Origin: Candidatus Roizmanbacteria bacterium | GTDB taxonomy: Bacteria > Patescibacteriota > Microgenomatia > UBA1406 > GWC2-37-13 | Reading direction: 5' to 3' | Length of the DNA stretch: 64,000 nucleotides | NCBI GenBank assembly: GCA_037444855.1 | Contig: JBBILO010000004.1 | Coordinates: 852-64,851 of the forward strand | The notes under the pieces: model-generated | What the model was told of the DNA's origin: nothing | Database searches by the model: none | Seen by the model: only the letters and a program-made list of their open reading frames with translations | Shown here: positions 14,510-35,041 of the stretch, in pieces | How positions within the stretch are numbered: the first letter of the stretch is position 1 | Layout of the letters: each line of letters begins with the position of its first letter | Position numbers and translations under genes: made by a program

Positions 14510-15577
14510 TTATTTTAATAACTTTTTTAAAACAATTGGATTTTGTGAAAGTTTTAATAAACCGGTGATCACGCAGTTTTCTGGTCTTTCAACAGCGACT
14601 ACCTCAATTTTGAGCGTGTCAGCAAAAAATTTATCAATGCCTTTAATGTTTGCAATACCGCCAATTAAATAAATGCCATTTTTATAGATTTCATCTAAAG
14701 TTTCTGGAGGGGCAATTTCGATTACTTCTTTAATTGCATCGAGTATGGTATTAAAAGATGGGATGAGAGCTTCTTTGATATCATAGCTTTTAATCTTGAC
14801 CGATTTAGGCAAGCCATTTTCTAAAGATTTTCCACGAACAAGATAAGTTTTTTCCTCCTGAGTAAAATTAAGGAGAGTTTTTAATAAAAGCTCCAGGCTA
14901 TTTTCACCGAGGATAATTCCATATTTAAGGTAAAGATAATTACTTATTTGTTGTAAAAAATATCCTCCGCCTACTTTTAAAATTCGATCAACGACCACGC
15001 CGCCGCCACTGATAACAGAGATTTCAGTCAGTCCAAATCCAATATCAACAAGAATAAATGGTGAATGAACAAATAAATCATTTTTGATAAAGACCGAGGC
15101 GGCGATTGGGCTTTCTAATAAAAATATTTGACTAAAGCCAACTTTGTTTAATAATTCTTCCAAAGCTTTTCTCTCTATTTCTGTGGCATTACGGGTGATT
15201 GAAGCAATAATTTTCATCGGTGGTCGAAAAAAAAACTTTTTTTTAAGATAAGATGAAAGATATTTATTGATAATTTCATTTAAAAAAAATACCGAAGCAT
15301 CGAAGTCACTGATAACTCCAAAAACGATAGGTTTAATCACCTTAATAAATTCTGGTGTTTTTCCAATGATTGATTTTGCTTCTTCGCCAAAAGAGAGATA
15401 ATTCTTGGTTTTGAGATTGTAGCTTAAACAGGATGGTTCTCGGACGACGATACCTTTATTTTTTATTCCCAATCTCGTTATTGACGAGCCAAGGTCAAGA
15501 CAAAACGTGAGTTCGTCAAAATATTCAATTGTTTTTTGGCTGATATTTTTTATAAAATTAGTAATCATGAATGTCAT
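14510..15577 (-). CDS. mreB: Rod-shape protein MreB (actin-like ATPase)
   Basis: DLGSSITRLGIKNKGIVVREPS.., GKTPEFIKVIKPIVFGVISDF, VDIGFGLTE, IYLIGGIANIKG. Start uncertain: ATG at 15577 or 15568, or TTG at 15583. Confidence 0.85.
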   Translation of the reverse strand: MTFMITNFIKNISQKTIEYFDELTFCLDLGSSITRLGIKNKGIVVREPSCLSYNLKTKNYLSFGEEAKSIIGKTPEFIKVIKPIVFGVISDFDASVFFLNEIINKYLSSYLKKKFFFRPPMKIIASITRNATEIERKALEELLNKVGFSQIFLLESPIAASVFIKNDLFVHSPFILVDIGFGLTEISVISGGGVVVDRILKVGGGYFLQQISNYLYLKYGIILGENSLELLLKTLLNFTQEEKTYLVRGKSLENGLPKSVKIKSYDIKEALIPSFNTILDAIKEVIEIAPPETLDEIYKNGIYLIGGIANIKGIDKFFADTLKIEVVAVERPENCVITGLLKLSQNPIVLKKLLK

Positions 15578-17747
15578 AAACAAAATAATTAATTCACTTT
15601 TTTATCTTCTTTTTTTGACTACTCCTTTAATCGTTTATCCTTACACTTCTGAACTCTTTGAATTTAATAAAATGATTTTTATTTATTTGATAACAACTCT
15701 TATCCTTTTCTTTTGGTTACTGAAAATGATTCTTCTTAAAAAAATTATATTAAAAAAAACACCTTTTGACTGGGTAATCTTTTTATTTTTTTTCTCTCAA
15801 ATTCTTTCCACTGTTTTTTCGATTGATCGCCACACCTCTTTTTTTGGATATTACGGCAGATTTAATGGCGGTTTATTGTCACTGATAGCTTATTTGATTC
15901 TTTATTATGCTGCCGTTTGTAATTTAAATAAAAAATCGCTTGAAAAACTCTTAAAGATATCTTTTGCCTCAGCCATTTTAACAGTTTTAATTGGTATCCC
16001 TGGTAAATTTAACCATGATATACTTTGCTTGATTTTAACCAATCAATTTAGTAACGATTGTTGGACGTCGCAATTTAAACCAGCAGAAAGAATGTTTTCT
16101 ACTCTTGGGCAGCCTAATTGGCTGGGTGCTTTTCTTTCGGTCAACTTTTTTATTGGGCTTTATTGGTATTTGAGAAGATCGCACAAGGACAATAAATTAG
16201 TTTTGTTTTTCAATTTTTTTGCTTTAATTCTTATTTTCCTCGGTCTCTTATTTTCTCGCTCTCGGTCAGCTATTTTAGCTACTGTTATTTGTCTTTTGTT
16301 TTTTATTAGTTGTTCATTTGTTTTATTAAATCAATTTAGATCACTCAAAAAGAAGGTCGTTTATCTTATTTTAAGTATCTTTCTCTCGATGGTTATCTTT
16401 AAAACCGGCATCAGTCAGATTGACCGATTGGTTAATTTCAATATTAATGTTTTCAAGCGATCGAATGACATGATTAAAGAAAATAAAACTCATCAAAAAG
16501 TTTCCCCAATTCTGGTGACGGAGTCATTTGAAATTAGAAAAATAGTTTGGAAAGGAGCAATAGAATTAGCCAAAAGATATCCTTTCTTTGGGAGTGGCCT
16601 TGAGACTTTTGGTTATGCTTATTATTTTGTGAGACCGAAAGAGCATAATTTGACTTCCGAATGGGATTATCTTTATAATCGAGCTCATAATGAGTATCTA
16701 AACTATGCAGCAACAACTGGGTTTTTCGGTTTAGCTTCTTACCTCTTACTAATTGTTACCATAATAATCAGTTTTATTAAAAAGTTATTGATAATCAAAA
16801 ATTCTTATAAGAAATTTGATCTCAATAAAAATTTATCCGAAGGACTTCTTTTTCTCTCTATTTTTTTATCCTTTTTATCAATCCTCATTACCAATTTTTT
16901 TGGTTTCTCAACGACAATAATTAGTCTATTTTTTTATTTAATCATCGCTTTTTTAACTATTTTATCACTCTCAACCTCTGAAGAAAATCAAGAAAAATTT
17001 ATTGTTAAAGATAAAACTGATAAGATAAGAGGAGGGCAAATTTTATTGATTCTTTTAAATACTTTGGTTTCTGCGTTCTTTATTTTATCTATTGCGAGGT
17101 ACTGGTTGGCTGATCGTTATTATAGTCAAGCCGAAATTTATGCTCAGAACGATTATTACCCAAAAGCGATAGAATTAATAAATACCGCTTTGAAACTGAA
17201 ATACGAACATGTTTATCAAGACAAGCTTTCTGGATATTTAGCGCGACTGTCGGTTTTTATTTCTTATCAGAAAGACAATCAGAAAATGATTGAGGTGATT
17301 AAATTATCAAAATCGGTGAATGATCAAACGCTCAAGGCCTCGCCAAAAAATATCTTATATTGGCGAACAAAAGCAAAAAATCACTATCTCTTTTACCAAG
17401 CGACTTTAGATGATAGGGAGATAAAAAAAGGAATTGAAGCCTTAAAATACGCTATGTATTTGGCGCCAAGTGATCCTAAAAATCCTTATAATTTGGCTAT
17501 TTTTCATGGCAGCTTATACGAATCTCAAAAAAATAAAGAAAAAAAAGAACAATTAAAAAGATTAATTTTATTTTATCTTGATCAATCAATCGCTCTAAAA
17601 CCTAATTATCGAGAGGCTTTATTTTTTAAAGGTCAATTTTTAAGCCGGATTGGAAAAAAAGATGAAGCAAGAGCAACATTTGAAATTATCCTTAAAAGAA
17701 TCAATCCTTTTGATCAAGAAGTAATCGAGGAATTAAAAAAAATTTAG
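15567..17747 (+). CDS. O-antigen-ligase-like (Wzy_C) polytopic membrane protein with C-terminal TPR repeats; candidate O-oligosaccharyltransferase
   Basis: More than 10 TM helices. SRSRSAILA and AHNEYLNYAATTGFFGL match the Wzy_C loop pattern. The C-terminal 250 aa is TPR-like. ATG 15567 is preferred over the GTG at 15507. Confidence 0.7.
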   Translation: MNVINKIINSLFYLLFLTTPLIVYPYTSELFEFNKMIFIYLITTLILFFWLLKMILLKKIILKKTPFDWVIFLFFFSQILSTVFSIDRHTSFFGYYGRFNGGLLSLIAYLILYYAAVCNLNKKSLEKLLKISFASAILTVLIGIPGKFNHDILCLILTNQFSNDCWTSQFKPAERMFSTLGQPNWLGAFLSVNFFIGLYWYLRRSHKDNKLVLFFNFFALILIFLGLLFSRSRSAILATVICLLFFISCSFVLLNQFRSLKKKVVYLILSIFLSMVIFKTGISQIDRLVNFNINVFKRSNDMIKENKTHQKVSPILVTESFEIRKIVWKGAIELAKRYPFFGSGLETFGYAYYFVRPKEHNLTSEWDYLYNRAHNEYLNYAATTGFFGLASYLLLIVTIIISFIKKLLIIKNSYKKFDLNKNLSEGLLFLSIFLSFLSILITNFFGFSTTIISLFFYLIIAFLTILSLSTSEENQEKFIVKDKTDKIRGGQILLILLNTLVSAFFILSIARYWLADRYYSQAEIYAQNDYYPKAIELINTALKLKYEHVYQDKLSGYLARLSVFISYQKDNQKMIEVIKLSKSVNDQTLKASPKNILYWRTKAKNHYLFYQATLDDREIKKGIEALKYAMYLAPSDPKNPYNLAIFHGSLYESQKNKEKKEQLKRLILFYLDQSIALKPNYREALFFKGQFLSRIGKKDEARATFEIILKRINPFDQEVIEELKKI

Positions 17748-17749
17748 TT

Positions 17750-18241
17750 TTATGGATTAACGTTTGGGCTAGAAACACCCCAAAAACAACTCATTGTTCC
17801 TCCGCTCTTTTTTTTGCATTGGGTTGAACAGGTGATTGTTGGACTTCCGGATAACGAATCATAAGGTAAGATTTGTTGATTATTTTCTAAACAAGCATAC
17901 AAGCGATATTCTCTTCCGTTTGATTGATATTCGTACGATTTTCCGGCTACGGGATCATTAGGGATTTTTTGCATATAGGTTTTTTCCGGATTACAATCTG
18001 AGGCGATTCTTGTCTCACATAATGAAGAATTATTTGAAGCAAAAATATTAAATGTGGGATATTTTTTTTTATCTTCATAATACATTTCAAGCGCTCTTTG
18101 GATCTGCTCCAAATCAGCTTTTCTCCTAGCATCACGGCCTTTTTTTAAAGAAGTGATGAAATTACCTGCTAATGACGCTGATAATACGCCAAGCATTGAA
18201 ATAATAATCATTAATTCTATTAGGGTAAAGGATTTTTTCAT
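17750..18241 (-). CDS. Prepilin-type N-terminal domain protein (GspG/PilA-like pilin), orphan copy A
   Basis: MKKS/FTLIELMIIISMLGVL class III signal, DARRKADLEQIQRALEMYY block, 6 Cys, C-terminal SSPNVNP. Confidence 0.85.
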   Translation of the reverse strand: MKKSFTLIELMIIISMLGVLSASLAGNFITSLKKGRDARRKADLEQIQRALEMYYEDKKKYPTFNIFASNNSSLCETRIASDCNPEKTYMQKIPNDPVAGKSYEYQSNGREYRLYACLENNQQILPYDSLSGSPTITCSTQCKKKSGGTMSCFWGVSSPNVNP

Positions 18242-18294
18242 CTTATTTATAATATATAAGAATTATTATTTTAATACAAGATTTTAAATTAAAA

Positions 18295-19767
18295 ATGAAA
18301 TTAAAAATTAAAGAATTTATTAAAAGCGAATTTTTTTTTTGGATATTATTTAGTTTTTTATCTTTGTATTTTTTTCTTCATTACTGGAAGAATCAATTAA
18401 CTTTAAATTATATTGATTATGGCGAAGGAAGTTATATTTATGAATCTTTACTTTTTAGTCAAGGAAAGATTCCTTATCGAGATTATTTTCTTCCTCAACC
18501 ACCAGTGGTTTATTTGATTGGTAGCTTGATCTTCAAATTTTTCCACTCATTGATTTTTTTTAAATATTTTTCTTTTTTTCTACTTTTCCTCACTAATTTT
18601 TTATTATCAATTTTGTTAAGAAAATATTTTAAAAGCAACCTTCTCCCTTTATGTTCCATCTTTTCTTCTTTTATTTTTACTTTAACTATCATTTGGTGGT
18701 CGACTTATACCGCAGAGCCTTTTTTAAGATTTTTTTTAATTTTATCGGTCTTTTTTCTTTTTCCGATGAAAAGAAAAAAATCAGTGGAAATCAATTCCTT
18801 TTTTTTATCTTTAATCTTCGTAATAATGTTTTTTACCAAATACAACTCTTTGATTTACATAATTTCAGTTCTTGCTTTTATCTTCTTTACTAACAGAGAT
18901 TATTTTAAACCGTTGCTACTAAAATTTATCGTTTTTTTCCTTATTTTCTTGATTATTTTTTATCATTTTTTTGGGGAGGAATTCATTATTTATACTATGT
19001 GGTATCGAAAAATTCTACCTTTTAAAGAATCAAAAATTATTTTTTTAAATCTCAGTTTATATTTTTTAAAATTTTTCCCTTTTTACATTTTATCCCTATA
19101 CCTTGGTTTAAAATTTTTACACAAAAAGAACTATCAAAAAGCTTTCTTTTTCCTGCTACCGATTTTTTGGCTTCCTAATATTATTGCTCATTTTTTTGAA
19201 GGTACATACTTGTATATCCTTTTTCCAATTGAAATTATAATCACCTTAGGATTTTTTTATCTTGCCTTTAATTTTAAGAAGATCTTCCTTAAAAATAGAT
19301 CTTTCTTTAATTTTCTTCTTGTTTTGTTATTTTTTTGGTCAACGCTGGTGTTAATTTATTATCTTCAAATTTTTCATCAAAATTATTTACATCGTTTTTT
19401 AGAACATGATATTAATTCGGTAAAAGAAATTAGAAATATTATTCAATCATCTAGTGGAAGCAATGAAAAAATCTTTGCCCCACCTTTTTTTCTCGTTTTG
19501 GCAGAAAGAGGAACTATCTCCAACTTTCATGATCCATTTTTTTTATTTAATTATCTTGATAGAAAAGAAAATTTCTCTCCAATTTTTAACAAAGCAATTG
19601 ATGAGATAAGATTGAATAGACCGAGGGTAATTGTTGCTGATTGGCGAATAAAATCTGTTTTGTCCATAATTGATAATAATTATTTAAAAGACTACAAAAA
19701 GATAAAGATGATTCAATTTCTTAATAATGGATCAGAGATGGTAGAAATTTATTTGAGACAAAAATAA
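18295..19767 (+). CDS. Polytopic membrane protein, GT-C fold glycosyltransferase-like (ArnT/PMT_2-like)
   Basis: 490 aa with more than 10 TM helices. First-loop acidic motif YIDYGEGSY..PYRDYFLPQPP and soluble C-terminal domain. Assignment by architecture only. Confidence 0.5.
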   Translation: MKLKIKEFIKSEFFFWILFSFLSLYFFLHYWKNQLTLNYIDYGEGSYIYESLLFSQGKIPYRDYFLPQPPVVYLIGSLIFKFFHSLIFFKYFSFFLLFLTNFLLSILLRKYFKSNLLPLCSIFSSFIFTLTIIWWSTYTAEPFLRFFLILSVFFLFPMKRKKSVEINSFFLSLIFVIMFFTKYNSLIYIISVLAFIFFTNRDYFKPLLLKFIVFFLIFLIIFYHFFGEEFIIYTMWYRKILPFKESKIIFLNLSLYFLKFFPFYILSLYLGLKFLHKKNYQKAFFFLLPIFWLPNIIAHFFEGTYLYILFPIEIIITLGFFYLAFNFKKIFLKNRSFFNFLLVLLFFWSTLVLIYYLQIFHQNYLHRFLEHDINSVKEIRNIIQSSSGSNEKIFAPPFFLVLAERGTISNFHDPFFLFNYLDRKENFSPIFNKAIDEIRLNRPRVIVADWRIKSVLSIIDNNYLKDYKKIKMIQFLNNGSEMVEIYLRQK

Positions 19768-21554
19768 TTTTTGTTAAGATGTTTTTGTTGGCAGAGATTA
19801 CTTTTTTGAAAATAATCTTTAAGTAATTGAGCAAAGTACGAATAACTATCACTAGGATAAATTCTAACCACACCGGTAAGGAATTCGTTTAGCTTGTTGA
19901 TTAATTTGTTGTCTGCAAGAAATAGAACAAAGGAAAACATTTTTTCTTGATAATATTCAGATAATGATTTGTAAAATAAAATTTCCTCAAGATTGTTGTT
20001 TAGTATTATCAATTTTTTATTTTTTAACCAAAATTCGAAATTAATTTTAATAATTTGACCCATATCTTTTTTAAATTTCTCTTTTGAATCATAATATCGC
20101 CAAACCAAACCATAAGGAGCATATAGTCCTAAATTATAAGTCGATTCAGTATAGATTGGAAGAGAGTTTTTTTTTAAAAAAAATTTTAAGTCTCCATTAA
20201 GGGGAATAATAAGCTGGGGATATCTTTTTTTAACTTTTTCTAAATAATATTGTCGTCGAAACATCGCCGGAAACAGTAATACTACTTTTTTAAACTTGGG
20301 AGATTGTTTTAGATAATAAAAATATGAAAAAGGAAAATAGGTTAAATCAGACTTGAGCATTAGAATTGAGTTTTTTTTTAAGGGAAAGATGATGTCATAG
20401 GCTAGTTGATGATATTGATCAGCATTTTTTAATTCCTTTATTATCTTATAAGATTTAAGAAAGTTTGATATAAGCAATAAAGTAATAAATAAATATAGAA
20501 ATATAGAGGAAATTTTTTTATGAAATCTATTCTTGAACAAATTTATGACATAATTTAAACCAAAAGTAAAAGGAAAAATTAAAAGTAAATAAAAAGCAAT
20601 TAAATATCTTTCGAAAGTTGCCAGTGAAAAACTATAAGAAAGATTAAAATTCGTGATGTACAAAAAAATAACATATAAAAAAAACGAAAAAAGAAAATAA
20701 TTTTTGAAAAAAGAATATTTCTTATTATTTTTTATTAGAAGATAAAAGCCAACAATGATTAATAACGCCCCCGTAGGTAAAAAATCTCCAACCACCATTA
20801 AAAAAGTCGAGACCAAAGAGGCAATTTGGTTAATAAAATTAGGAATAGAACCAAAATAGGCTTGTAAAGTACCATAAGAAGAACGCGTAATGAGTCTCAT
20901 TAGGCCATCAATTGTTTTGGCGTTTTCCCAATCAATAGGTGGGTTAAGATATAGGCTCGATAGAAAGGGATAAAGATAAAAGAAAGCGCTTATAAAAGGG
21001 ATAAATAACATATAATTCGTAAAAAATTTTCTATTGAGAATAAAAAAGGGAATAGCAAATAAAATAAATGAGTGGTGATGTGCGATTCCTAAAGCAATAA
21101 AAAAATAAAATAAATAAAGAATTTTTCTTTTCTTATTCTGATTAAATTTTAAACCTAAATAAATTATTCCTGAAATTATTAAATTGTTTAAGGCAAATAC
21201 TTCTGGAACAATTGAATAAAGCCAAACTAAATAAATAAAAGAAAAGTAAGAAATTGAAACCATAGCAATATTTTTATTAATCTTTAGCTCTTTGGTTAAT
21301 ATCAGATAGATAAAGTAAACTGAAGTAATTTGGGAAAAAATTGAGATCAGATTAGCAACGGTTATTGGATTGATAAAAAATAAAATTTTAGTTGAAATTA
21401 CCAGTAGAAAAGAGTATAACGGGTAGCCTGGTGGATGAGGGATGCTAAAGGAAGATTGAGCGACAAGAAATTCGGGCGAATCTCCGCCAAAAAGATACCG
21501 TGATTGGGTCAAATTATAAATTAAAAAAAAAATTAAAAACAGGACTTTGACCAT
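19749..21554 (-). CDS. DUF2723/TMEM260-like membrane protein (putative protein O-mannosyltransferase family)
   Basis: N-terminal GGDSPEFLVAQSSFSIPHPPGYPLYSFLL signature; polytopic with a C-terminal soluble domain; 601 aa. Confidence 0.65.
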   Translation of the reverse strand: MVKVLFLIFFLIYNLTQSRYLFGGDSPEFLVAQSSFSIPHPPGYPLYSFLLVISTKILFFINPITVANLISIFSQITSVYFIYLILTKELKINKNIAMVSISYFSFIYLVWLYSIVPEVFALNNLIISGIIYLGLKFNQNKKRKILYLFYFFIALGIAHHHSFILFAIPFFILNRKFFTNYMLFIPFISAFFYLYPFLSSLYLNPPIDWENAKTIDGLMRLITRSSYGTLQAYFGSIPNFINQIASLVSTFLMVVGDFLPTGALLIIVGFYLLIKNNKKYSFFKNYFLFSFFLYVIFLYITNFNLSYSFSLATFERYLIAFYLLLIFPFTFGLNYVINLFKNRFHKKISSIFLYLFITLLLISNFLKSYKIIKELKNADQYHQLAYDIIFPLKKNSILMLKSDLTYFPFSYFYYLKQSPKFKKVVLLFPAMFRRQYYLEKVKKRYPQLIIPLNGDLKFFLKKNSLPIYTESTYNLGLYAPYGLVWRYYDSKEKFKKDMGQIIKINFEFWLKNKKLIILNNNLEEILFYKSLSEYYQEKMFSFVLFLADNKLINKLNEFLTGVVRIYPSDSYSYFAQLLKDYFQKSNLCQQKHLNKNYFCLK

Positions 21555-21597
21555 TTAGAAATTATACTTTAAAGAATACTAAAAAGTAGAATTTAAT

Positions 21598-22104
21598 TTA
21601 GAGGACACACCAATAACATGAAAATGCAGAAGAATTTGTTGGACCACAAACAGCATCTCCTCTACCTACTTCAATTCCATTAGCATTATATTTAGTATTT
21701 GGATCAGTTCTAAAGGATTTAGATTCGGGTCTAAAGCAAACAGTGACACTCTCTCGAGTCCCAATGACAGTAATTTTTCTTAAGCGATCACCGGCTAATG
21801 TTGAAAAATCAGCTTTTAACTCTCCCGCATTAACAACATTATATAGGCCAACAGCGCTATAACCACTTGAAAGGTCAATTGGTCCAATTGAAGCAGATGG
21901 ATCCCAAGGCATTCTATTGCCTGCCACTGCATAATATCTTATAATAGCATTGTGAACTTCAGAGACGGTATTTCTTATACCGGTATCAGTCCCTTTTTTT
22001 AATTGTTCAAATGGATCTAAAGCAGCCAGTAAACCAACTGCTAGAGCTCCAAGAAGGGCAATGACGATTAAAAGTTCAATAAGAGTAAAACCTTTTTTCA
22101 TCAT
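21598..22104 (-). CDS. Type IV pilin, major-pilin candidate (orphan copy B)
   Basis: MMKKG/FTLIELLIVIALLGALAVG class III signal. Locally GC-richer codon usage, own strong promoter, 4 Cys near the C-terminus. Confidence 0.85.
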   Translation of the reverse strand: MMKKGFTLIELLIVIALLGALAVGLLAALDPFEQLKKGTDTGIRNTVSEVHNAIIRYYAVAGNRMPWDPSASIGPIDLSSGYSAVGLYNVVNAGELKADFSTLAGDRLRKITVIGTRESVTVCFRPESKSFRTDPNTKYNANGIEVGRGDAVCGPTNSSAFSCYWCVL

Positions 22105-22119
22105 TTTATAAATAAATTT

Positions 22120-22148
22120 AATATAAGAAAGAAAAAAATTATTGTCAA
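22120..22148 (-). promoter_or_regulatory. Sigma70-type promoter of the major-pilin candidate
   Basis: Minus strand TTGACA (22143-22148), 17-nt spacer, TATATT (22120-22125), then 15 nt to the ATG. No SD. Confidence 0.55.
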
Positions 22149-22162
22149 GAGGTATTTAAAAG

Positions 22163-23779
22163 TTAAATTATTTCTTCTTTTTTCTTTCTTACAAACGCAA
22201 TCCATTCTTCAATAACTTCAAAAATTAATTTAAACGGAGATTCAATAATGAAATCAAAAATAAAAATAAAGAAATTAAGCCGAGCGACTTCCCTACTCAA
22301 GAAATTACCCAAAGAGAGAATCGGCATAAAGAAAAAATCAATGACTGGGGCAAAAATGCTTTCTTTTTCTTCCAATTTATATTCATTAACAACTTGTTTT
22401 ATTCGGTAAGAGAAAAAAGTTACTAACGAGACAAAAAAAACAAAGATGATTTTTGAGATTAAATTAAAATTTAAAATTGTTAAAATTTCGTTAATTAAAT
22501 CTAAAGTTATCAAAAAGGTTAAACTATAAAAAATTGTAAAACCAAAAAATAACACCGGTTTTTTTGCTTTAACTTTACTTTTAATAATGAACGTTTTTTT
22601 GGAATAGTCCGAATCTTTACTGATAATATCAATAATTCTTTCATATATTTTTTGGGTATTTTTTTGACCTGGAAGTTTAAAAAATAGCAGGATAAGGAGC
22701 ATCAATATCGGAGGAAATACAGTATTGATAAGAATTGAAGTAACATTAACTTCTCCATAAAGATATTGAGACAAAGGAAGCTCAAGTATTAAGGCAAAAA
22801 CCATTTTAGTCAAAAAAATATAGATAAAACTTCGTATCGCTAAATTTATTAGTCGAGAGTGAATACCTTGATATTTTTTTCGACAGAGAAACTCAACTTC
22901 TTCTTCAAGCTTTTCCTTGTTCTCAAGAAGTGTTTCAATTTCATTCATTTTTTCATCAACAAGACTGAATAAGATTAAAAATGGAGGGAGTTGTTTTTTT
23001 AAATAACGAGATATTTTGTTAACATATTGATTATTGAGAATTTGGTTTATCTTATCAACAATTTTGTTAAGTTTTTGGCCAAATTTTTTTAATTCATCTT
23101 TGTCAAAGTCGCCAATATTTTTATAAAAATTAATAAAAAGATGATATCTTTGATAGGCTTTATCACTTCGGCGAAAAACTCTTTCAATGGCGGCTAACAA
23201 ACATAAATCCCTTACCTCTGGCTTTAAATTTTCAATTGTAATTTTTTGGCAAAGAATTTGAAATAAGTAATAGCTAAAATAAGCCATTTTTTGAGATTTT
23301 ACCGGACTTAATTTTTCTTCGATTTCAGCGGTAATAATATGAAGAAGAAACTCCTCGCAGGCTAATTTTTCCTTACCGGAAAGACCAATCAATATTTCTT
23401 TTCTTAAATAGATGAAATTATCAATAATTTTTTGAACAAGAAGGCTGTCTTCGTAACCTAGTTCATCATGATTGAAATATCTTGCCCACAACAATTCACG
23501 GATAAGATTTTCCCCTTCATATTCGCCATCTGGATTAATCATCAAACGCCTTTTTAAGATTCTTTCAATCGCCGCTCGACGGATGAGGTGATCTTCTCGG
23601 TATTCGATTGCATTTCTTATTTTTTCATATAGAAGAGCAAAAAAAGAGACTGTTTGTGAAACATTAATTCTGCTGGCTTCATCGGGTTTAATTTTTTGCT
23701 TGATAGATTTGATTGATTGAACGAGGTATCCAAAATAAGGAGAAATTATTATTTTCTGATTAGAAGGATTATCAGCCAT
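22163..23779 (-). CDS. Unknown two-domain membrane protein (helical N-terminal domain of about 330 aa plus 5-6 C-terminal TM helices)
   Basis: Long ORF. Start set to ATG 23779 (MADNPSNQK). I can assign no catalytic motif. Confidence 0.6.
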   Translation of the reverse strand: MADNPSNQKIIISPYFGYLVQSIKSIKQKIKPDEASRINVSQTVSFFALLYEKIRNAIEYREDHLIRRAAIERILKRRLMINPDGEYEGENLIRELLWARYFNHDELGYEDSLLVQKIIDNFIYLRKEILIGLSGKEKLACEEFLLHIITAEIEEKLSPVKSQKMAYFSYYLFQILCQKITIENLKPEVRDLCLLAAIERVFRRSDKAYQRYHLFINFYKNIGDFDKDELKKFGQKLNKIVDKINQILNNQYVNKISRYLKKQLPPFLILFSLVDEKMNEIETLLENKEKLEEEVEFLCRKKYQGIHSRLINLAIRSFIYIFLTKMVFALILELPLSQYLYGEVNVTSILINTVFPPILMLLILLFFKLPGQKNTQKIYERIIDIISKDSDYSKKTFIIKSKVKAKKPVLFFGFTIFYSLTFLITLDLINEILTILNFNLISKIIFVFFVSLVTFFSYRIKQVVNEYKLEEKESIFAPVIDFFFMPILSLGNFLSREVARLNFFIFIFDFIIESPFKLIFEVIEEWIAFVRKKKEEII

Positions 23780-23799
23780 AAAGAAATTATAGCATAGCA

Positions 23800-25197
23800 C
23801 TAATCTAAAGTTAAGCCTTGATCGATAAGGATTTTTTTAATTTCAAGTAGTTTTTTCCCAAGTAAGTTTTCATTATTGGCTTCAACATTTAGTCTGACTA
23901 GCGGTTCGGTATTTGAACCTCGAAGGTTAAACCGCCAATCTTTATTTTCAATTGTTAATCCATCAATCTCAATGATTTTTTTATTTTGGTATAAGCTTTT
24001 GATTTTTTTAAACAAGTTAACCAGAGGTAGATTTTGAGGTAGATGATAATTAATTTCACCTGATTCATATGAGCTTTGAACTTTTTTCACTAGTTGCGAA
24101 AGAGGAGCATTTTTTTTAGAAATTAAATCCAAAAGAGTGATGATTACTCTGATGGTCGATTCTGCACCACCAGTTTCTTTAAAGTAATAATGACCAGAGG
24201 ATTCACCACAAAAAAAGACATTATTTTCATTCATTTTTTTCGTTATTAGAGCGTGACCAACAGGTGATAAGATAAAAATTCCTCGATATTTCTCAACAAT
24301 ATTTTTAAGATTATTGGTATAACGAACATCGGTCATGATAGAGCTATTAGGATAATGGACTAAAATCTCTTTGGCGATCAGTGATGAGATTAAACTTGAG
24401 GGTATAATTTGACCTTTTTCATCAACAAAAAAAACACGATCTGCATCACCATCGGTAGCGATTCCTAGATCAGCTCGTTTCTCTATCACATTCTTTTGAA
24501 GATCTTTTAAAGTTTCGAACTTTAATGGATTGGCTTCATGGGAAGGCATTCTTCCATCAAGTTGATAATTAAGTTTAATAACTTCGACTTTCAGTCTTTT
24601 CCAAAGTTCTTCAAACATTAAAATACCCATGGTATTGGCTGGATCGACAACAATTTTTAATTTTTTAATATTTGGATTAACCAACTCGAAGGCAAAATCA
24701 AATTCCTTTTTGAGGGCATCCTTAATTTTGTATAAATTGCCTTTTTTTGTTTTTTTTAATTCGATTCTATCACTCAAAACAAGATTTTTTACCTCTTCCA
24801 TCCCCATTTCTTTAGAAGCTTTATAAATTTTTCCTTGATGACAATAAAAAAATTTTATCCCATTCCATTCGGGCGGATTGTGTGAGGCTGAAATTTGAAT
24901 GCCAACATCTAACTGATTGACAATCGTCGAAAAATAAACTGTAGGTGTTGGCACCATTCCAAACGAGTAAACGTTGCCGCCCATTTCTAGGAGAGAATTA
25001 ATTGATTGATCGTAAAGTTTGAATGATGATAATCTCATGTCGTAGCCTATTCCCACCTTCAAGACCTCTTTTTTTAATTTATGAGAAAAATAAAAGTAGA
25101 TTGTTTTAATAATTTTTTTGATTACTTGTTCATTAATATCTATTGGATAAATTCCACGAATGTCATAGGCTTTAAAAATATTGGGATTAATTTTCAT
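23800..25197 (-). CDS. alpha-D-phosphohexomutase (phosphomannomutase/phosphoglucomutase/GlmM family)
   Basis: Active-site loop QISASHNPPEWNGIKF, metal loop ATDGDADRV, GESSGHYYF; 465 aa. Confidence 0.85.
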   Translation of the reverse strand: MKINPNIFKAYDIRGIYPIDINEQVIKKIIKTIYFYFSHKLKKEVLKVGIGYDMRLSSFKLYDQSINSLLEMGGNVYSFGMVPTPTVYFSTIVNQLDVGIQISASHNPPEWNGIKFFYCHQGKIYKASKEMGMEEVKNLVLSDRIELKKTKKGNLYKIKDALKKEFDFAFELVNPNIKKLKIVVDPANTMGILMFEELWKRLKVEVIKLNYQLDGRMPSHEANPLKFETLKDLQKNVIEKRADLGIATDGDADRVFFVDEKGQIIPSSLISSLIAKEILVHYPNSSIMTDVRYTNNLKNIVEKYRGIFILSPVGHALITKKMNENNVFFCGESSGHYYFKETGGAESTIRVIITLLDLISKKNAPLSQLVKKVQSSYESGEINYHLPQNLPLVNLFKKIKSLYQNKKIIEIDGLTIENKDWRFNLRGSNTEPLVRLNVEANNENLLGKKLLEIKKILIDQGLTLD

Positions 25198-27146: not shown

Positions 27147-27389
27147 ATGGTAGTAGCACTAAGATTGATGAGATTGGGTAAAAAAAATCGACCATTTTAT
27201 CGAATTGTGGCTATAGAAAAGACAAAAAAAAGAAATGGTAAATATCTTGAAAAGATAGGAACATATGACCCATTTGAAGAAAGTCCGGTTAGAATTGATG
27301 ATCAAAAATTCAAATTTTGGATTAACAAAGGAGCTCAAATCTCAAAAGGTTTAAGGAGAATTCTCAAAAGGCAAAAGCCTATTCATTAA
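27147..27389 (+). CDS. rpsP: 30S ribosomal protein S16
   Basis: MVVALRLMRLGKKNRPFYRIVA..YDP; 80 aa. Confidence 0.9.
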   Translation: MVVALRLMRLGKKNRPFYRIVAIEKTKKRNGKYLEKIGTYDPFEESPVRIDDQKFKFWINKGAQISKGLRRILKRQKPIH

Positions 27390-28092
27390 TGGCTTCAAAA
27401 GGATCTTCTCTGGCTGAAATTTCGATTTCTTTATTTGGATCTAATTGACTTTTTATAATTTTTGTTTTTGATAATATTTCTAAAATTAATCCATTATCGT
27501 TATCATTTATTGTATTTAACGTAAGATTATTAACATAATTTTTTTGACTATAGAAGGTAAGGTAAAGTTTTTTTTCAGCAGTTGAAGTCTGATTTAAATT
27601 TTCAGGGGAATAATCTATTTTATCAATTGTGATTAAACGACCGCTATTAAAGCGATATTTTTTTAAAAATTCTAAAAAAGTATCCATATTGCCTATCCCA
27701 GTAATCGTTAACGAAACTGTTTTTCTGTTCCCATCGATAGGACCGAGATCATAGTTGATAATAATAAATCCTGTTTCATGGCTGAGATTTTCTAAGGCAG
27801 CAGTAATTGAAAAAAAATCTTCAGTATTTGGGATGAGGGAGTTCAGATATTGATTTATTAATTCAATATTAATGTTGCGATTTTTTAAATTTTTGGTGTA
27901 CTCAATTAATGATTTTCTTTTTTCTAGTGATTTAATTTTATCTTCTAAAATTAACTTTTGTTTATTAAATTGATCGATTTTCTGAATATAAAAAAAAATT
28001 ATAAAAAAAATCAAAAGAATATTTATGAAAAAAATCAGTAAAAAAGAGGAGTTTTTTTGCAGTTGTTTTATTAAAAAATAATTAATTTTCAT
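27379..28092 (-). CDS. pilO: PilO-like pilus alignment protein
   Basis: Single N-terminal TM, coiled coil, then alpha/beta domain. Position after pilM and pilN, overlapping pilN by 11 nt. Confidence 0.45.
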   Translation of the reverse strand: MKINYFLIKQLQKNSSFLLIFFINILLIFFIIFFYIQKIDQFNKQKLILEDKIKSLEKRKSLIEYTKNLKNRNINIELINQYLNSLIPNTEDFFSITAALENLSHETGFIIINYDLGPIDGNRKTVSLTITGIGNMDTFLEFLKKYRFNSGRLITIDKIDYSPENLNQTSTAEKKLYLTFYSQKNYVNNLTLNTINDNDNGLILEILSKTKIIKSQLDPNKEIEISAREDPFEAINE

Positions 28093-28666
28093 TATCTATT
28101 TTTTTAAATTGACCAACAAAACTTATTTTATAAGAATTGGATGTATTCAGCAATGATGGTGACTCAACCAAGAATGATTCCAATTTTAGATTAACAAAAT
28201 TATTCAAAAAGGGTTCTTCCTCCACATAATCAAGAAATTCGATTAAATGGTTGGTATTATTAAAAGTTAATGTAAAATTGACCTTTTTGTTTTGATCAAT
28301 TTTCAAAGATTCGATAGTTGGTGGATTGGTTGAAATTTTTAGGGAGTCATTTATTAGATTATAATACGGATAAAAATTAACATCATTATTTAAGTTTTCT
28401 TTTAATTGATTAAACAAATTATTAAATTTTTTAAAATTTTCTTCAACGGGCAAATTATTTTTTATAAATGTTTGTAAATTTTGTTCTTGTTGGATTAATA
28501 CGTCTACCTGATTTTTCTTATAAGTAATAATGAGTAAAGATGTAATTAACAAAACGAAGAATAATCCAGTCGAAAAGAAGACAATTTTTCTAAACAGTAA
28601 AAAATATTTTTGATAAAGAAGATAATTTTTATGATGTGATAAAAGATTTATTTTTTTTATCTTCAT
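28082..28666 (-). CDS. pilN: PilN-like pilus alignment protein
   Basis: N-terminal KINLLS motif (PilN INLLP-like), one TM helix, 194 aa. 4-nt overlap with pilM. Confidence 0.55.
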   Translation of the reverse strand: MKIKKINLLSHHKNYLLYQKYFLLFRKIVFFSTGLFFVLLITSLLIITYKKNQVDVLIQQEQNLQTFIKNNLPVEENFKKFNNLFNQLKENLNNDVNFYPYYNLINDSLKISTNPPTIESLKIDQNKKVNFTLTFNNTNHLIEFLDYVEEEPFLNNFVNLKLESFLVESPSLLNTSNSYKISFVGQFKKIDNEN

Positions 28667-29715
28667 AGTTCATAGTGAGCTAAATTAAAGATAAATTCTT
28701 CGGGATGATTGATCAAGGGTTGGGTTTTAATCGGAAATGGAATAAAATGATACGGTCTTAATCGAGATAAGTATGTCTCAAAATTTTTAATTTTTCCACT
28801 CTGATTAATTAAGTAGATTTTGTTAATCGAAGAAAATTCATATTTTTTTTTAATCGTGTATATGAAGATATCGATGTTTTTCATCAATTCATCGAATACC
28901 GGTAAAAAAATTTTTTCAAAGTCGACAGACGCTTTCTCGGAAAGACCGATATTAATTAGTGTTTCATAAGCTTTTTGATCATTAAAATTAAAATTAAGAT
29001 TTAATTCCTTTAGGAATAGATTGAGACCAACTTTAACTTTGTATAAATCAACAATTAGTTTCAGTTCCGGATGATAAAAGTAAAAAAAACTTGATATAAA
29101 GCCAAAATTAAAAAAAATACAAGGCTCTTTTTCTAAAAAAAAGCGATCATTGTTGATCAATCGCACTAAAGCGCTAATCTCATTTTCTAATACTTCAGGA
29201 ACCAGACCGGCGGCTTCGATAAAATGGGTTAAATATTCAATTAAATCGTAAGTAGAGGCAACAATTAAAATCTTCTTTTTATTTTGTTTTTTATCTTCTT
29301 TTAAAATAGCGAGATCAACAGCGACTTGATCAATTGAGATAGGGATGATTTGATCAGCTTGATATTTTACGGCTGATATCAATTCTTTTTCGGGTAAATA
29401 TGGAAAATCGATGATCTCACTAAAAGTATATTCATCTGGGATAACTAATCGAACGTTATTAATATTAGAATTAATTTTTTTAACGGCCGCTTCAATAAGT
29501 TGTGCTTGATTAACAAGGATTTTTTCTGAAAAATTTAAAAAAAAAGGGGTGTCGTTGTTTGCTTCGTATAATTTATAGATTTTAAACGGATTTTTTTTAT
29601 CAGCTAAATCTACAGAATATTCTGTCAGACGAAATAAATTTTCTGTTAAATGAAGAGATAATTCTGTGGTTTTCATTTTAATATTAAGTATTAAAAATAA
29701 ATCATTGATAGTCAA
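28663..29715 (-). CDS. pilM: PilM-like actin-fold pilus assembly protein
   Basis: 350 aa, cytoplasmic, directly upstream of pilN. The phosphate loops are degenerate. The start may be the internal ATG at 29676. Confidence 0.5.
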   Translation of the reverse strand: MTINDLFLILNIKMKTTELSLHLTENLFRLTEYSVDLADKKNPFKIYKLYEANNDTPFFLNFSEKILVNQAQLIEAAVKKINSNINNVRLVIPDEYTFSEIIDFPYLPEKELISAVKYQADQIIPISIDQVAVDLAILKEDKKQNKKKILIVASTYDLIEYLTHFIEAAGLVPEVLENEISALVRLINNDRFFLEKEPCIFFNFGFISSFFYFYHPELKLIVDLYKVKVGLNLFLKELNLNFNFNDQKAYETLINIGLSEKASVDFEKIFLPVFDELMKNIDIFIYTIKKKYEFSSINKIYLINQSGKIKNFETYLSRLRPYHFIPFPIKTQPLINHPEEFIFNLAHYEL

Positions 29716-30305
29716 TAGCTTCTTAGTTTAACAAAAGTTGAATAAGTCATCTTAGCGTTTTCCTCAACCTGATTCTGATTATTGATACTGCAGTTAGTTT
29801 GATTTTGAGCAGTTTTATAGCAAATAGTAAACAGAATTCCAACAATCGGCGAAGAATAAGACTGGTTTTGATAACAAGTTAGGGTGAAATCACTAATAAA
29901 AGTTTTATCATTGTTTAAAGCAACGATACCGACGCTTGGAAGAGAAGAAGATGAGGCAATATAACCATCTGAGTTATCGCACGTTGTCCCGGAACTTGAT
30001 TGGCAAAACCGAAAATATGTTCCTTGTTTATCAAGAAAATAATTATTAGCGGTGATATCTTGAATTGATAAACAATCGATAGGGCTAGGAGGAGGGTTAT
30101 TGTGAATACTTACCGCTCGATTAATAATTAAATTTTTCATTGTGTTTAAAATATAATCACCCTGGCGTTTGACTTCAAGCGCACGGTAGATTTTTATTTG
30201 CTGTCTTAATAAAACGTAAAAAATATTAAATAAAATAGGAAGGGAAAGACCGATAACACCAATAACGATGAGCATCTCAATTATAGTAAAACCTTTCCCT
30301 TTCAT
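29712..30305 (-). CDS. Minor (pseudo)pilin
   Basis: MKGKG/FTIIEMLIVIGVIGL after trimming the track ORF to ATG 30305; 4 Cys. Confidence 0.8.
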   Translation of the reverse strand: MKGKGFTIIEMLIVIGVIGLSLPILFNIFYVLLRQQIKIYRALEVKRQGDYILNTMKNLIINRAVSIHNNPPPSPIDCLSIQDITANNYFLDKQGTYFRFCQSSSGTTCDNSDGYIASSSSLPSVGIVALNNDKTFISDFTLTCYQNQSYSSPIVGILFTICYKTAQNQTNCSINNQNQVEENAKMTYSTFVKLRSY

Positions 30306-30306
30306 T

Positions 30307-30774
30307 TTAATATTCCCAAATAGAAAAAATAGTATCGATTGGAACCGAAAAAATATTAATACCTTCTTGCCATCTGACGGTAACAGCAACTTTTATCTTG
30401 GTTACTGGATTATTGGTTAAATTGGTTAATGTTACCTCTCTTTTAAAGCGCCAATCTAAATTATAATCAGCGCAATTGCCTGAAGTTGGAAAACTGCTGT
30501 TAAGTGATAGACTGCTATTAAAACAATAAGTGATTCCAGTATTTGAGGATTTTGATACAAATTGATTCCAATCTTTCTCTTTTTGACCTCTTAACCATTC
30601 TAATAATTGTTGGCCATAATTGACAGCAACGAGTTTGTTTTCCTGTGTTTTTAAGTTTCTTAAAGAATAGGTGGTGATTGAGACGGCAGTGATATAAAGA
30701 AGAGAAAGAATGGTTAAAAAAACTAAAACTTCAACTAATGTAAATGATTCTTTATGGTTGGTTGTTATAGTCAT
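30307..30774 (-). CDS. Minor (pseudo)pilin
   Basis: ..HKES/FTLVEVLVFLTILSLL class III signal; 155 aa. Confidence 0.8.
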   Translation of the reverse strand: MTITTNHKESFTLVEVLVFLTILSLLYITAVSITTYSLRNLKTQENKLVAVNYGQQLLEWLRGQKEKDWNQFVSKSSNTGITYCFNSSLSLNSSFPTSGNCADYNLDWRFKREVTLTNLTNNPVTKIKVAVTVRWQEGINIFSVPIDTIFSIWEY

Positions 30775-30793
30775 ATTTAATTATATTAAAGTC

Positions 30794-31330
30794 TTAACAA
30801 GAAGTTAAATTGTTGTCTAAATTTATTAAGCCAAATTTAGAGATATTGATAGAAATGCATTTATTAATATTACTGTTTTTAATGGTTATTGTAAAAGAGT
30901 TAGCGTTGTTACTGAAGTTTATCTCCGAGGCTAAGGGTTGAAACCAAATATAACCGTTGGTTGGAAGAGAAGTGAACGAAAAAGAAATTCGATATGGTTG
31001 AATGTCAAAATAGGGATTACACGTTGAACCGCAACAGAGTCTTAGAGAATATTGAGATTGATTATTTTGATTCTGAAAATAGACTTGATATCCCTTAAAA
31101 TCATTACAAATTCTGTTTGATACATCTTGGGCGAAAGTTTTTCTTTTTGCTAATTCAAGAACGTTGACTAATTTTTTGGCCTCCTCTTTTAATTTTTGTT
31201 CTTGAGTTTGTCGATTGAATGAGGCTAAACTTAAACTAGTAAGAAGAATAACTATACTGACACTAATGATAATTTCAATTAACGTGAAAGATGAAATTTT
31301 AGCATAAAATTTTTTTCTATTTTTGTCCAT
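30794..31330 (-). CDS. Minor (pseudo)pilin, GspH/FimT-like size
   Basis: ..KISS/FTLIEIIISVSIVILL class III signal; 178 aa. Confidence 0.8.
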   Translation of the reverse strand: MDKNRKKFYAKISSFTLIEIIISVSIVILLTSLSLASFNRQTQEQKLKEEAKKLVNVLELAKRKTFAQDVSNRICNDFKGYQVYFQNQNNQSQYSLRLCCGSTCNPYFDIQPYRISFSFTSLPTNGYIWFQPLASEINFSNNANSFTITIKNSNINKCISINISKFGLINLDNNLTSC

Positions 31331-31733
31331 AAGGTCCTAAACAATAGGTACAATTACTTCCGCATTGACCAACGATACAAGGAGTATTTGATGTTTCCAA
31401 ATATGCTCCTAGAGTAAAATCGTTGGGTGAGATATTACAGTAGTAGAAGAATGTTGATTTTGGATCAGTGGGGATTTTTTGAAGATAAATATTTCCGGAA
31501 GTTAAATAAGTCAAAACATTAGAGCAATTACCGCTGTTTGAAGCGCTAATATAACGATTATTATTTGAGCGATACATTTCCAAAGCGGCTCTTATTTGTT
31601 CTAGATCGGCTTTTCTTTTGGCGTCGTGAGATTGTTTAGTGATTTGAGAGTAGGAAATAGCTGCTCCAGCAGCTAATAATCCAATAATAGTTGCGACCAC
31701 TAAAATCTCGATTAAGGTAAAGCTTTTTTTCAT
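31317..31733 (-). CDS. GspG/PilA-like pilin
   Basis: MKKS/FTLIEILVVATIIGLL plus DAKRKADLEQIRAALEMY block; 138 aa. Confidence 0.85.
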   Translation of the reverse strand: MKKSFTLIEILVVATIIGLLAAGAAISYSQITKQSHDAKRKADLEQIRAALEMYRSNNNRYISASNSGNCSNVLTYLTSGNIYLQKIPTDPKSTFFYYCNISPNDFTLGAYLETSNTPCIVGQCGSNCTYCLGPYGQK

Positions 31734-31736
31734 ATT

Positions 31737-32120
31737 TTATTGTTGATTGCTGACACAAGGTGTTGGCTCTGTTTCTGTTGTTGCGCAGATTCGATAACTT
31801 GTATTGGTACAGCCAGAACAAAGATAAGGATTATTTGTTTTTGGGTCAACAGGTACATTGGTAATGATTACCTGAGGAGGCGTAGGACAAGAAATAGTAG
31901 TAAACCTTCCCCCATTAGGGGTTGGGTATTGATAACCGCAGATTGAATAATACTGTTCTAAGGCATTTTGAATTGCTTTTAAATCATTTTTTCTTTTTGC
32001 ATCGCGTGCTTTTTTTTGAGCAGTTGAATAAGAGGTAGCACCTAAACCAAGTAAGACAGCAATAATCCCAATGACCACGAGCATTTCAAGTAAAGTAAAA
32101 CCTTTTTTTATTTTTTCCAT
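31737..32120 (-). CDS. GspG/PilA-like pilin
   Basis: MEKIKKG/FTLLEMLVVIGIIAVL plus DAKRKNDLKAIQNALEQYY block; 127 aa. Confidence 0.85.
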   Translation of the reverse strand: MEKIKKGFTLLEMLVVIGIIAVLLGLGATSYSTAQKKARDAKRKNDLKAIQNALEQYYSICGYQYPTPNGGRFTTISCPTPPQVIITNVPVDPKTNNPYLCSGCTNTSYRICATTETEPTPCVSNQQ

Positions 32121-32123
32121 AAA

Positions 32124-32576
32124 TTATGGTTGATTAACTTGATAATATTTACCTGAAGGACAAATTTCACCACAACTAATAGTACTCGCTTCAGGATCAG
32201 CCTTATTTTCGATGCAAGCACATAAAGTATAAGTGAGATTATTATTATCAACTAAATAATAATATGGAGTTGGAGCAAGAGGATCGCATGGGATTTTAGC
32301 CATATAGACAGTTGTTCCTGAAGCTAGTTGACTGTTACATGTACCAAAACGATTACCGGCAGTGGCTGTAGGATAAGCTATTGGTGATTTGTCTTGTCGA
32401 TACATCTCTAAAGCCTTCTGAATTTGTTTCAAATCAGATTTTCTTTGAGCATCTCTTGCTCTTTCCCTGGCGCCCATAAAATTAGGGACCAAAAGAGTGG
32501 ATAACCCACCAATAATGGCCATCACCACTAGAAGTTCAATTAAAGTAAACGAATTTATAGAATCAAAACGATTCAT
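32124..32576 (-). CDS. GspG/PilA-like pilin
   Basis: [25 protein letters not shown] plus [18 protein letters not shown] block. ATG 32576 or 32588. Confidence 0.85.
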
Positions 32577-33276: not shown

Positions 33277-33282
33277 TCTAAA

Positions 33283-33317: not shown

Positions 33318-33323
33318 TTATTT

Positions 33324-35030: not shown

Positions 35031-35041
35031 GATTAATTACT

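Follow-up and report, generated by a model that had tools for sequence, protein, structure and literature searches.

A candidate pilin O-glycosylation cassette with a TMEM260-like enzyme next to the major pilin gene of a Roizmanbacteria type IV pilus region

Do pilin genes that lie among polytopic membrane enzymes in a bacterium of the candidate phyla radiation (CPR) mark a dedicated pilin glycosylation system? This question is raised by a stretch of 64,000 nucleotides (nt) from a Candidatus Roizmanbacteria genome (contig JBBILO010000004.1; the whole stretch is called the window hereafter), in which two pilin genes, pilin A and pilin B, are interleaved with genes for large membrane proteins. 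Glycosyltransferases encoded next to pilin genes are well known, TfpO/PilO, PglL and TfpW being the established cases. A first-pass annotation of the region had gone further and assigned four lipid-carrier-dependent transferases and a phosphohexomutase to a single machine. The window has a GC content of approx. 31%, and its open reading frames (ORFs) lie at the coordinates of that annotation, which are correct, as are the spacings of 2, 53 and 43 nt between key genes. Domains were called by searching the window ORFs against Pfam, NCBIfam and PDB sequences, and AlphaFold2 (AF2) models were compared by Foldseek. Pfam matches, homologues and models also bore out the family calls, namely a Wzy_C protein of 726 amino acids (aa) with tetratricopeptide repeats (TPR), a DUF2723 protein of 601 aa, two glycosyltransferases of the GT-C fold (490 and 571 aa), a mutase and two pilins. 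By a crude hydropathy count, the 726-, 490-, 601- and 571-aa enzymes are the only proteins in the window with at least ten transmembrane (TM) helices. The remainder of the window consists of housekeeping genes and a complete type IV pilus locus.

Our answer is a qualified yes for a smaller set of genes. The region probably encodes a TfpW-like pilin O-glycosylation cassette that employs a different, uncharacterised enzyme family. Its core would be a two-gene unit, in which the major pilin B is co-transcribed with a TMEM260-type GT-C enzyme, beside a swappable second GT-C. The genes concerned are the following.

21598-22104, minus strand: pilin B, a pilin with class III signal/N-methyl region (N_methyl/TIGR02532 matches), major-pilin candidate and proposed glycosylation substrate
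19749-21554, minus strand: TMEM260-like (DUF2723) GT-C of 601 aa (PF11028, E=1.9e-19), proposed pilin O-glycosyltransferase using a polyprenyl-phosphate sugar
18295-19767, plus strand: 490-aa GT-C (PMT_2/ArnT-like), putative partner enzyme (homologues with PF13231; ArnT fold by AF2/Foldseek)

The 601-aa protein matches PF11028 with 70.6 bits at a cut-off of 24.2. It also matches human TMEM260 (9rql_A; E=1e-24) over residues 9-453 versus 36-489. Human TMEM260 is a protein O-mannosyltransferase that modifies the IPT domains of cMET, RON and plexins, and its exchange D52A kills O-mannosylation (PMC10214176). Asp25 of the bacterial protein, located in the sequence GGDSPE, pairs with this catalytic D52, and an HPPGYPL motif is common to both proteins. 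Throughout 41 TMEM260-like homologues with 21-76% identity, D25, H40, P42-P45, E118, H160 and R224 are invariant. As the catalytic residue set is conserved and D25 is aligned with D52, the 601-aa protein is expected to be an active GT-C enzyme. To our knowledge, no function has been assigned to bacterial DUF2723/TMEM260 homologues. No protein named TfpW occurred among the 120 TMEM260-like homologues listed. Non-enzymatic pilin accessory genes are known downstream of pilA (PMC11841053), and the TMEM260-like protein might likewise be a non-catalytic factor of pilin assembly in the manner of TfpY/TfpZ, kept for chaperoning. The invariance of the catalytic Asp and the other GT-C active-site residues in all 41 homologues argues against such a role, and so does the co-occurrence of TMEM260-like genes with further glycosyltransferases and sugar-biosynthesis genes. 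We regard a purely accessory function as highly improbable.

The association of this enzyme with pilin B is a matter of gene order. In the window, the TMEM260-like gene follows pilin B on the same strand after 43 nt without a terminator-like site. In a genome scan seeded on pilin B, 314 species-level genomes contained relatives, and all of these were Microgenomates (Roizmanbacteria, Gottesmanbacteria and others); 80 loci were taken. Altogether, 86 related loci (designated by L numbers) were mapped at ORF level, and 71 pilin B-centred loci extended far enough downstream. In 29 of these 71, pilin B was immediately followed by a TMEM260-like gene on the same strand (gaps from -55 to 222 nt), in 33 by pilin A, in six by the prepilin peptidase gene pilD, in one by a Wzy_C gene and in two by another gene. 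The pilin B-TMEM260 pair is kept under both upstream contexts, whether pilin B adjoins pilC (37 related loci) or nusB (26 loci). All five distant TMEM260 homologues, which were picked by long contigs and not by gene context, are encoded in the order pilB-pilT-pilC-pilin-TMEM260. A metagenome scan seeded on TMEM260 motifs yielded 80 loci with 22-49% identity, 72 of them with enough upstream DNA. A same-strand pilin ORF lies directly upstream of the TMEM260-like gene in 48 of the 72, mostly within 100 nt, and one further locus contains a pilin truncated by the contig end, giving approx. 49/72. Finally, the loci reached through the 490-aa GT-C (37-44% identity) all share the order mreB, Wzy_C, pilin A, GT-C, TMEM260-like gene, pilin B. 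Taken together, there is strong evidence that pilin B and the TMEM260-like gene form an operon-like pair that withstands rearrangements and is still found where enzyme identity has dropped to 22-30%. The conserved unit is a pilin, then a TMEM260-like gene, then a variable GT-C gene. The proposal of a lipid-carrier-dependent transferase dedicated to a pilin is supported by this conserved pair, which is always flanked by a second GT-C.

A second line of evidence comes from the pilin itself. Position 128 of pilin B sits in the motif C-F-x-P-x-S-K-S-F and is Ser in 36 out of 36 orthologues with an adjacent TMEM260-like gene in the genome loci. In orthologues without such a neighbour, it is Ser in 23 of 47 and Ala in the other 24 (Fisher p=4e-8 by a test that ignores phylogeny). 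The metagenome sample contains Ser128 in 25 of 25 alignable orthologues upstream of TMEM260, which makes 61/61 for both sets. We take Ser128 as a lead to the acceptor site, short of proof. Pilin B is also exceptionally well conserved. Its identity to the orthologues of L001, L003, L005, L007 and L008 is 83-86%, compared with 66-70% for PilB, 59-66% for PilC and 47-49% for MreB; overall, pilin B reaches this value where the neighbour genes are only 37-70% identical. Major pilins normally rank with the most variable proteins of a pilus, and the conservation of pilin B reverses this pattern.

The third component is the GT-C encoded beside the pair. In the window, the 490-aa gene and the TMEM260-like gene are convergent and overlap by 19 nt; on its other side, the 490-aa gene is divergent from pilin A, 53 nt away. 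Its product has no Pfam, NCBIfam or PDB sequence match of its own. Among its 20 homologues, those with 41-44% identity carry PMT_2 (PF13231), and one, in a metagenome-assembled genome (MAG) of Patescibacteria, is named a GT39-family protein. An AF2 model computed from the homologue alignment (pLDDT 83, pTM 0.86) had its best Foldseek match in ArnT 5f15 (E=8.5e-5, TMq 0.55), with 5ezm also matching; PglB, STT3, ALG3/9/12, DPY19 and AftA followed. The motif YIDYGEG in loop 1, containing D41 and E44, is nearly invariant. Judged from model and homologues, the 490-aa protein is a GT-C enzyme.

In relatives, the slot beside TMEM260 is filled differently. It holds the PMT_2-like enzyme here and a YfhO-like (PF09586), a GT87 or an unclassified polytopic protein elsewhere. 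The genes next to distant TMEM260 homologues encode GT87 together with a sugar methyltransferase, RmlC/RmlD-like dTDP-sugar proteins and a glycosyltransferase of family 2 (GT2), or a YfhO-like GT-C with a methyltransferase and GT2, or a YfhO-like GT-C with PilD. In the metagenome scan, approx. 33 loci have a convergent gene for a YfhO-like protein of 7xx aa, and a 487-aa gene of the window type was found in only one. Polytopic proteins without Pfam match occupy the slot after TMEM260 in L017, L018 and L041 (approx. 400-460 aa) and in L040 and L049 (approx. 420-450 aa). One of these groups shows a D-x-Q-W-Y-L-x-I-A-x-x-G-Y motif reminiscent of PIG-V-type mannosyltransferases. These slot proteins may be unclassified GT-C families.

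The following course of events can be envisaged. Prepilin B would enter the cytoplasmic membrane such that its globular domain faces outwards. Through Asp25 of loop 1 and a polyprenyl-phosphate monosaccharide, presumably a hexose, the TMEM260-like enzyme would O-glycosylate Ser/Thr of this globular domain, and we infer that Ser128 in the Cys-bounded C-terminal region of pilin B is the best acceptor candidate. Presumably in a later step, the partner GT-C might add or extend the sugar from a second lipid-linked donor; alternatively, it might serve pilin A. Glycosylated subunits would then be assembled by the PilB/PilC/PilM machinery. The Wzy_C protein with its TPR domain would be a separate outward-facing transferase of lipid-linked glycans. 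As a tentative extension, on balance doubtful, the system might be two-tiered: the TMEM260-type enzyme would prime Ser128 on a near-invariant pilin and the swappable second GT-C would set the glycan. If true, surface variation, be it for host recognition by an episymbiont or for phage evasion, would be shifted from the pilin sequence to the sugar coat, and combining a near-invariant pilin with a swappable-partner cassette would diversify the pilus surface in a novel manner.

Among the known systems, the closest parallel is TfpW of group IV P. aeruginosa, an arabinofuranosyltransferase/oligosaccharyltransferase. TfpW, whose gene comes immediately after pilA, is a GT-C protein of 646 aa that has 11 TM helices, carries a TPR domain in the periplasm and glycosylates the pilin (bioRxiv 10.1101/2020.04.19.049825). 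In both systems, the major pilin gene is followed immediately and in the same direction by the gene for a GT-C of approx. 600-650 aa, whose first loop outside the membrane bears an acidic catalytic motif. A lipid-phosphate-sugar serves as the donor, which for the window protein is predicted. An outward C-terminal domain is presumably also common to both; it contains TPR in TfpW and some TMEM260 homologues, whereas the window protein has no detectable TPR. The TfpW analogy drawn in the first-pass annotation is thus apt. As for differences, the enzyme described here belongs to PF11028 and is clearly homologous to human TMEM260, TfpW having been compared by its description. Furthermore, a second, swappable GT-C is present alongside and the host is a monoderm CPR bacterium. 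Unlike in the TfpW system, genes for D-arabinofuranose synthesis (DprE1/DprE2-type) were not found in the window or the related loci.

Human TMEM260 shares with the window protein homology over the whole TM domain, the D52/D25 pair and the HPPGYPL motif; its own specificity is for a protein domain rich in beta structure. The bacterial protein differs by a predicted polyprenyl-phosphate instead of a dolichol-phosphate donor, a pilin as predicted substrate and a shorter C-terminal domain without recognisable TPR. A third parallel is found in the CsbB/GtrB-YfhO systems of Bacillus and Listeria, which act on lipoteichoic acid (LTA) and wall teichoic acid (WTA). YfhO plus GT2 is a known extracytoplasmic glycosylation pair with teichoic acids as acceptors (PMC5836110). 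Likewise, the slot after TMEM260 in relatives holds a YfhO-like GT-C, sometimes with GT2, consistent with a polyprenyl-phosphate sugar that is made inside, flipped and used outside. In contrast, the genes described here are part of a pilin operon, and the window has a PMT_2-like protein instead of YfhO and no GT2.

A literature search for DUF2723 returned a mention only in the human TMEM260 paper (PMC10214176), and one for PF11028 returned only Plasmodium gene identifiers. Searches for papers linking TMEM260 with pilin, or the candidate phyla radiation with O-antigen ligase and pili, retrieved none. We could not find a description of a DUF2723/TMEM260-family enzyme as pilin transferase or of its pairing with swappable GT-C partners. 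A study on pili of Saccharibacteria calls glycosylation there unexplored; so far it has only been predicted from sequence (PMC11623550). Type IV pili play a central part in the episymbiotic life of Patescibacteria. For the bacterial TMEM260 family, the window locus and its relatives point to a testable substrate, the major pilin, with Ser128 as candidate site and Asp25 as catalytic residue. If pilin glycosylation proves true, the metazoan disease gene TMEM260 would have prokaryotic relatives in the bacterial pilin enzymes, and these could supply new protein-specific O-glycosyltransferases for glycoengineering.

Several observations weigh against a pilin-dedicated cassette. Gene order in this clade also keeps unrelated neighbours such as nusB and holB, which makes adjacency alone weak evidence. 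The association of Ser128 with TMEM260 takes no account of shared ancestry. Many pilin B loci have another gene in the TMEM260 position, pilin A in 33 of 71; as not all pilin B loci have an adjacent TMEM260-like gene, the modification would be dispensable or encoded elsewhere. Approximately one third of the TMEM260-like genes have no upstream pilin, including those on all seven contigs with a GC content above 0.55. A GT2 polyprenyl-phosphate-sugar synthase, a flippase and a nucleotide-sugar gene were not found in the window, apart from a non-conserved mutase, and no TPR was detected by Pfam in the 601-aa window protein, TPR Pfam matches being present in several of its homologues. For YfhO-type enzymes, teichoic acids and no proteins are known as substrates.

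Some of these points would suit a system of general protein O-glycosylation, comparable to PMT or PglL, in which pilins are merely the most abundant substrates and the locus is not dedicated to them. PglL-type Wzy_C enzymes and actinobacterial PMT have a broad specificity, which favours this explanation. The one third of TMEM260-like genes that are not pilin-linked would fit as well, and so would the many GT-C paralogues in Patescibacteria, where the family of the 571-aa protein alone comprises 2279 representative clusters. In a general system, however, one would not expect the tight, operon-like coupling to the major pilin specifically. Presence or absence of the cassette also varies between related genomes, as is typical of accessory, substrate-specific modification, and human TMEM260 is domain-specific (PMC10214176). 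We therefore consider a general system rather improbable and a cassette serving pilin B the better account of the gene order.

As to the GC-rich contigs, one of the seven has pilD upstream of the TMEM260-like gene. In L152 (Ga0180434_10002975; GC 0.55, non-CPR-like), the TMEM260-like gene is located directly downstream of a prepilin peptidase gene (PilD-like N-terminus) and not of a pilin, which hints that the pilus link may reach beyond Patescibacteria.

The second pilin lies in a different setting, at the end of the Wzy_C gene.

15567-17747, plus strand: Wzy_C (WaaL/PglL superfamily) polytopic enzyme of 726 aa with TPR tail (full-length PF04932, E=4.5e-20; weak C-terminal TPR matches)
17750-18241, minus strand: pilin A, a GspG-like second pilin (T2SSG/N_methyl matches)
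14510-15583, minus strand: mreB, conserved divergent neighbour of the Wzy_C gene (MreB_Mbl, E=5e-74)

In sequence comparisons with the PDB, the Wzy_C protein gave marginal matches to 9rmk, an 'Oligosaccharyltransferase' (E=0.009), and WaaL (E=0.5); in a profile search, TPR matches dominated and WaaL (E=0.006) was the only ligase-type match. In the AF2 model (pLDDT 84, pTM 0.85), the TM core resembles the WaaL ligase 7tpg_B (Foldseek E=2.5e-4, TMt 0.55), and residues approx. 513-726 form a superhelix like that of consensus TPR proteins and the TPR of O-GlcNAc transferase (OGT). The matches from sequence, profile and fold are all marginal or of superfamily rank, being compatible with a PglL-like as well as a WaaL-like enzyme. 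A loop of residues 290-375 bears the invariant R324, H360 and H374-N375-E376, and a Lys-rich segment (468-488) precedes an extra helix (489-512). From these loop residues and the order of segment and helix, the TPR domain is predicted to lie outside, beside the catalytic loop.

The first-pass annotation had likened this protein to PglL and TfpO as a pilin transferase. The Wzy_C gene ends 2 nt from pilin A, and 37 of 40 full-length Wzy_C genes converge on pilin A. The 726-aa protein resembles TfpO/PilO (P. aeruginosa, Acinetobacter) and PglL (Neisseria) in having a full Wzy_C domain and a WaaL-like fold and in abutting a pilin. Pilin A, in 33 related loci the immediate same-strand successor of pilin B, ends in the sequence C-x-W-G-[VI]-S-S-x-N-x-x-P, conserved in most orthologues that converge on Wzy_C. 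This Ser-Ser tail recalls the C-terminal Ser target of TfpO. By analogy, Wzy_C may serve pilin A and place a glycan on its Ser-Ser tail. TfpO is encoded downstream of pilA. In contrast to TfpO and PglL, the Wzy_C gene is convergent and not co-transcribed with the pilin; the protein has an extra TM helix and approx. 210 aa of TPR, is linked to mreB and is far more conserved. The Ser residues of the pilin A tail are located 5-7 residues from the C-terminus and are not terminal, and no genes for the assembly of undecaprenyl-diphosphate-linked glycans are found nearby.

Wzy_C is equally linked to mreB. It is divergent from mreB in 35 of 35 loci with a readable 5' flank; mreB is also adjacent in L089 and L091, where Wzy_C keeps this neighbour in the absence of pilin A. 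With an identity of 44-55% over the best 120 matches listed, Wzy_C is a highly conserved, probably core gene. A cell-envelope role for Wzy_C, as indicated by the mreB linkage, retention without pilin A and high conservation, fits equally well. A putative link of Wzy_C to pili is plausible.

These data lead to the question of whether the entire region might be envelope glycopolymer machinery, e.g. for teichoic-acid-like or wall polysaccharides of a monoderm cell, that is merely located beside the pilins, the adjacency being inherited synteny. The constant association of Wzy_C with mreB, with or without pilin A, its probable core status and its fold match to the WaaL glycan ligase are in accordance with this explanation. 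The same is true of the YfhO-type partners, known as LTA/WTA glycosyltransferases (PMC5836110), and of the equally syntenic, unrelated genes nusB and holB. It does not account well for the TMEM260-like gene, which is co-directional with pilin B at a distance of tens of nucleotides, in two upstream contexts and in lineages with 22-30% enzyme identity. The only characterised member of the TMEM260 family acts on proteins specifically (PMC10214176), and recognition of proteins is suggested by the TPR domains that Wzy_C and some TMEM260 homologues carry. Moreover, Ser128 of the pilin covaries with the presence of TMEM260. We consider it unlikely that envelope polymer synthesis explains the region as a whole and prefer pilin B glycosylation by the TMEM260-like enzyme.

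Three further genes had been counted towards the same machine.

37362-39077, minus strand: 571-aa GT-C (PMT_2-like), convergent on pilC, without Pfam match of its own
23800-25197, minus strand: phosphohexomutase (PMM/PGM or GlmM-like) with four PGM_PMM domains; best NCBIfam matches (PMM/PGM, archaeal GlmM) below cut-off
22163-23800, minus strand: 545-aa membrane protein (538 aa if started at the first ATG), N-terminal half soluble (approx. 300 aa), approx. six TM helices in the C-terminal part

The 571-aa protein had no direct Pfam, NCBIfam or PDB sequence match. Of 29 aligned members of its family, ten match PMT_2 (best 1e-14), six Glyco_transf_22 and three PMT, and the motif H40-P41-D42-E43 (HPDE) is invariant; by family membership, it is a GT-C enzyme. 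Its gene flanks pilC in the window, as had been described, and converges on it from the minus strand, whereas linkage to pilus genes is not conserved. An orthologue was found in only one of the 86 related loci (L003), where it lies beside mreB and rpsF-ssb-rpsR and not beside pilC. In both the window and L003, the gene is located on the rpsF-ssb-rpsR side. Compared with the window region 14.5-39 kb, L003 (1-21449) has nusB-rnc-rpsP, pilO/N/M, the minor pilins, holB and the pilB-pilT-pilC block rearranged or inverted.

The 545-aa protein gave no match in Pfam, NCBIfam, PDB sequences or plasmids. Neither this protein nor the mutase was found in any of the 86 related loci. Since pilin B abuts nusB directly in two of the loci reached through the 490-aa protein (L001 and L005), the 545-aa protein, the mutase and holA appear to be a lineage-specific insertion. 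We also considered the phosphohexomutase as a specific feeder of the pilin pathway and rejected it, because it is absent from the related loci and could equally be a GlmM-like housekeeping enzyme. Neither the 571-aa GT-C nor the mutase nor the 545-aa protein belongs to the conserved module. Conservation of adjacency in relatives, which had been named as a check on the region, applies to pilin B and TMEM260 (29/71, 5/5 and approx. 49/72) and does not extend to the mutase and the 545-aa protein (present in 0/86) or the 571-aa GT-C (present in 1/86). The concept of four transferases and a mutase as one machine is not supported, the 571-aa orthologue being present in one locus only and the mutase in none.

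The pilus machinery itself is encoded close by.

27379-37300: type IV pilus machinery (pilO/N-like ORFs, pilM, 5-6 minor pilins, (holB), pilB, pilT, pilC)

Pfam matches in this locus comprise PilM_2, N_methyl, T2SSE (twice) and T2SSF. With a full type IV pilus locus at 27.4-37.3 kb and pilin B abutting pilC in relatives, the two pilins are not the orphans they had been taken for. The pilus block is contiguous with pilin B in L003, L008, L089, L091 and L093; in relatives, pilin B directly abuts pilC, in L003 with the order pilC-pilT-pilB. A prepilin peptidase (A24) was not identified among the window ORFs scanned, and relatives carry PilD within the locus. Two ORFs with a single TM helix downstream of pilM (27379-28666, minus strand; 237 and 194 aa) are probably PilN/PilO-like, without significant Pfam match. 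The same holds for a pilin-like ORF of 178 aa at 30794-31330 (minus strand).

Two expression signals had been attributed to pilin B, one of them a promoter.

22120-22148, minus strand: TTGACA-17-TATATT sigma-70-like hexamers upstream of pilin B (11/12 match)

The match exists at 22148-22120 on the minus strand, but in DNA this rich in AT such matches are about as frequent as by chance (55 found in the region versus 54 expected from shuffling), and we rejected it as significant evidence for pilin B. We likewise discarded the supposedly GC-richer codons as an expression signal. Among the genes of the region that were compared, pilin B has the highest overall GC content (0.377), yet the lowest GC content at third codon positions (0.189). 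The excess is thus due to amino-acid composition, namely the Gly/Ala/Pro content, and not to codon choice.

Two minor observations were made in the course of the locus comparison. A low-GC pilus locus of the Microgenomates type is present in dozens of MAGs that serve as GTDB representatives and bear the title 'uncultured Gammaproteobacteria bacterium' (binchicken/SRP co-assemblies; L013-L083); these titles resemble mislabels. Finally, a gene for a DUF5660 protein adjoins the trigger factor gene in the window (41348-42768, minus strand) as well as in L003 (846-2255), suggesting a conserved pair.

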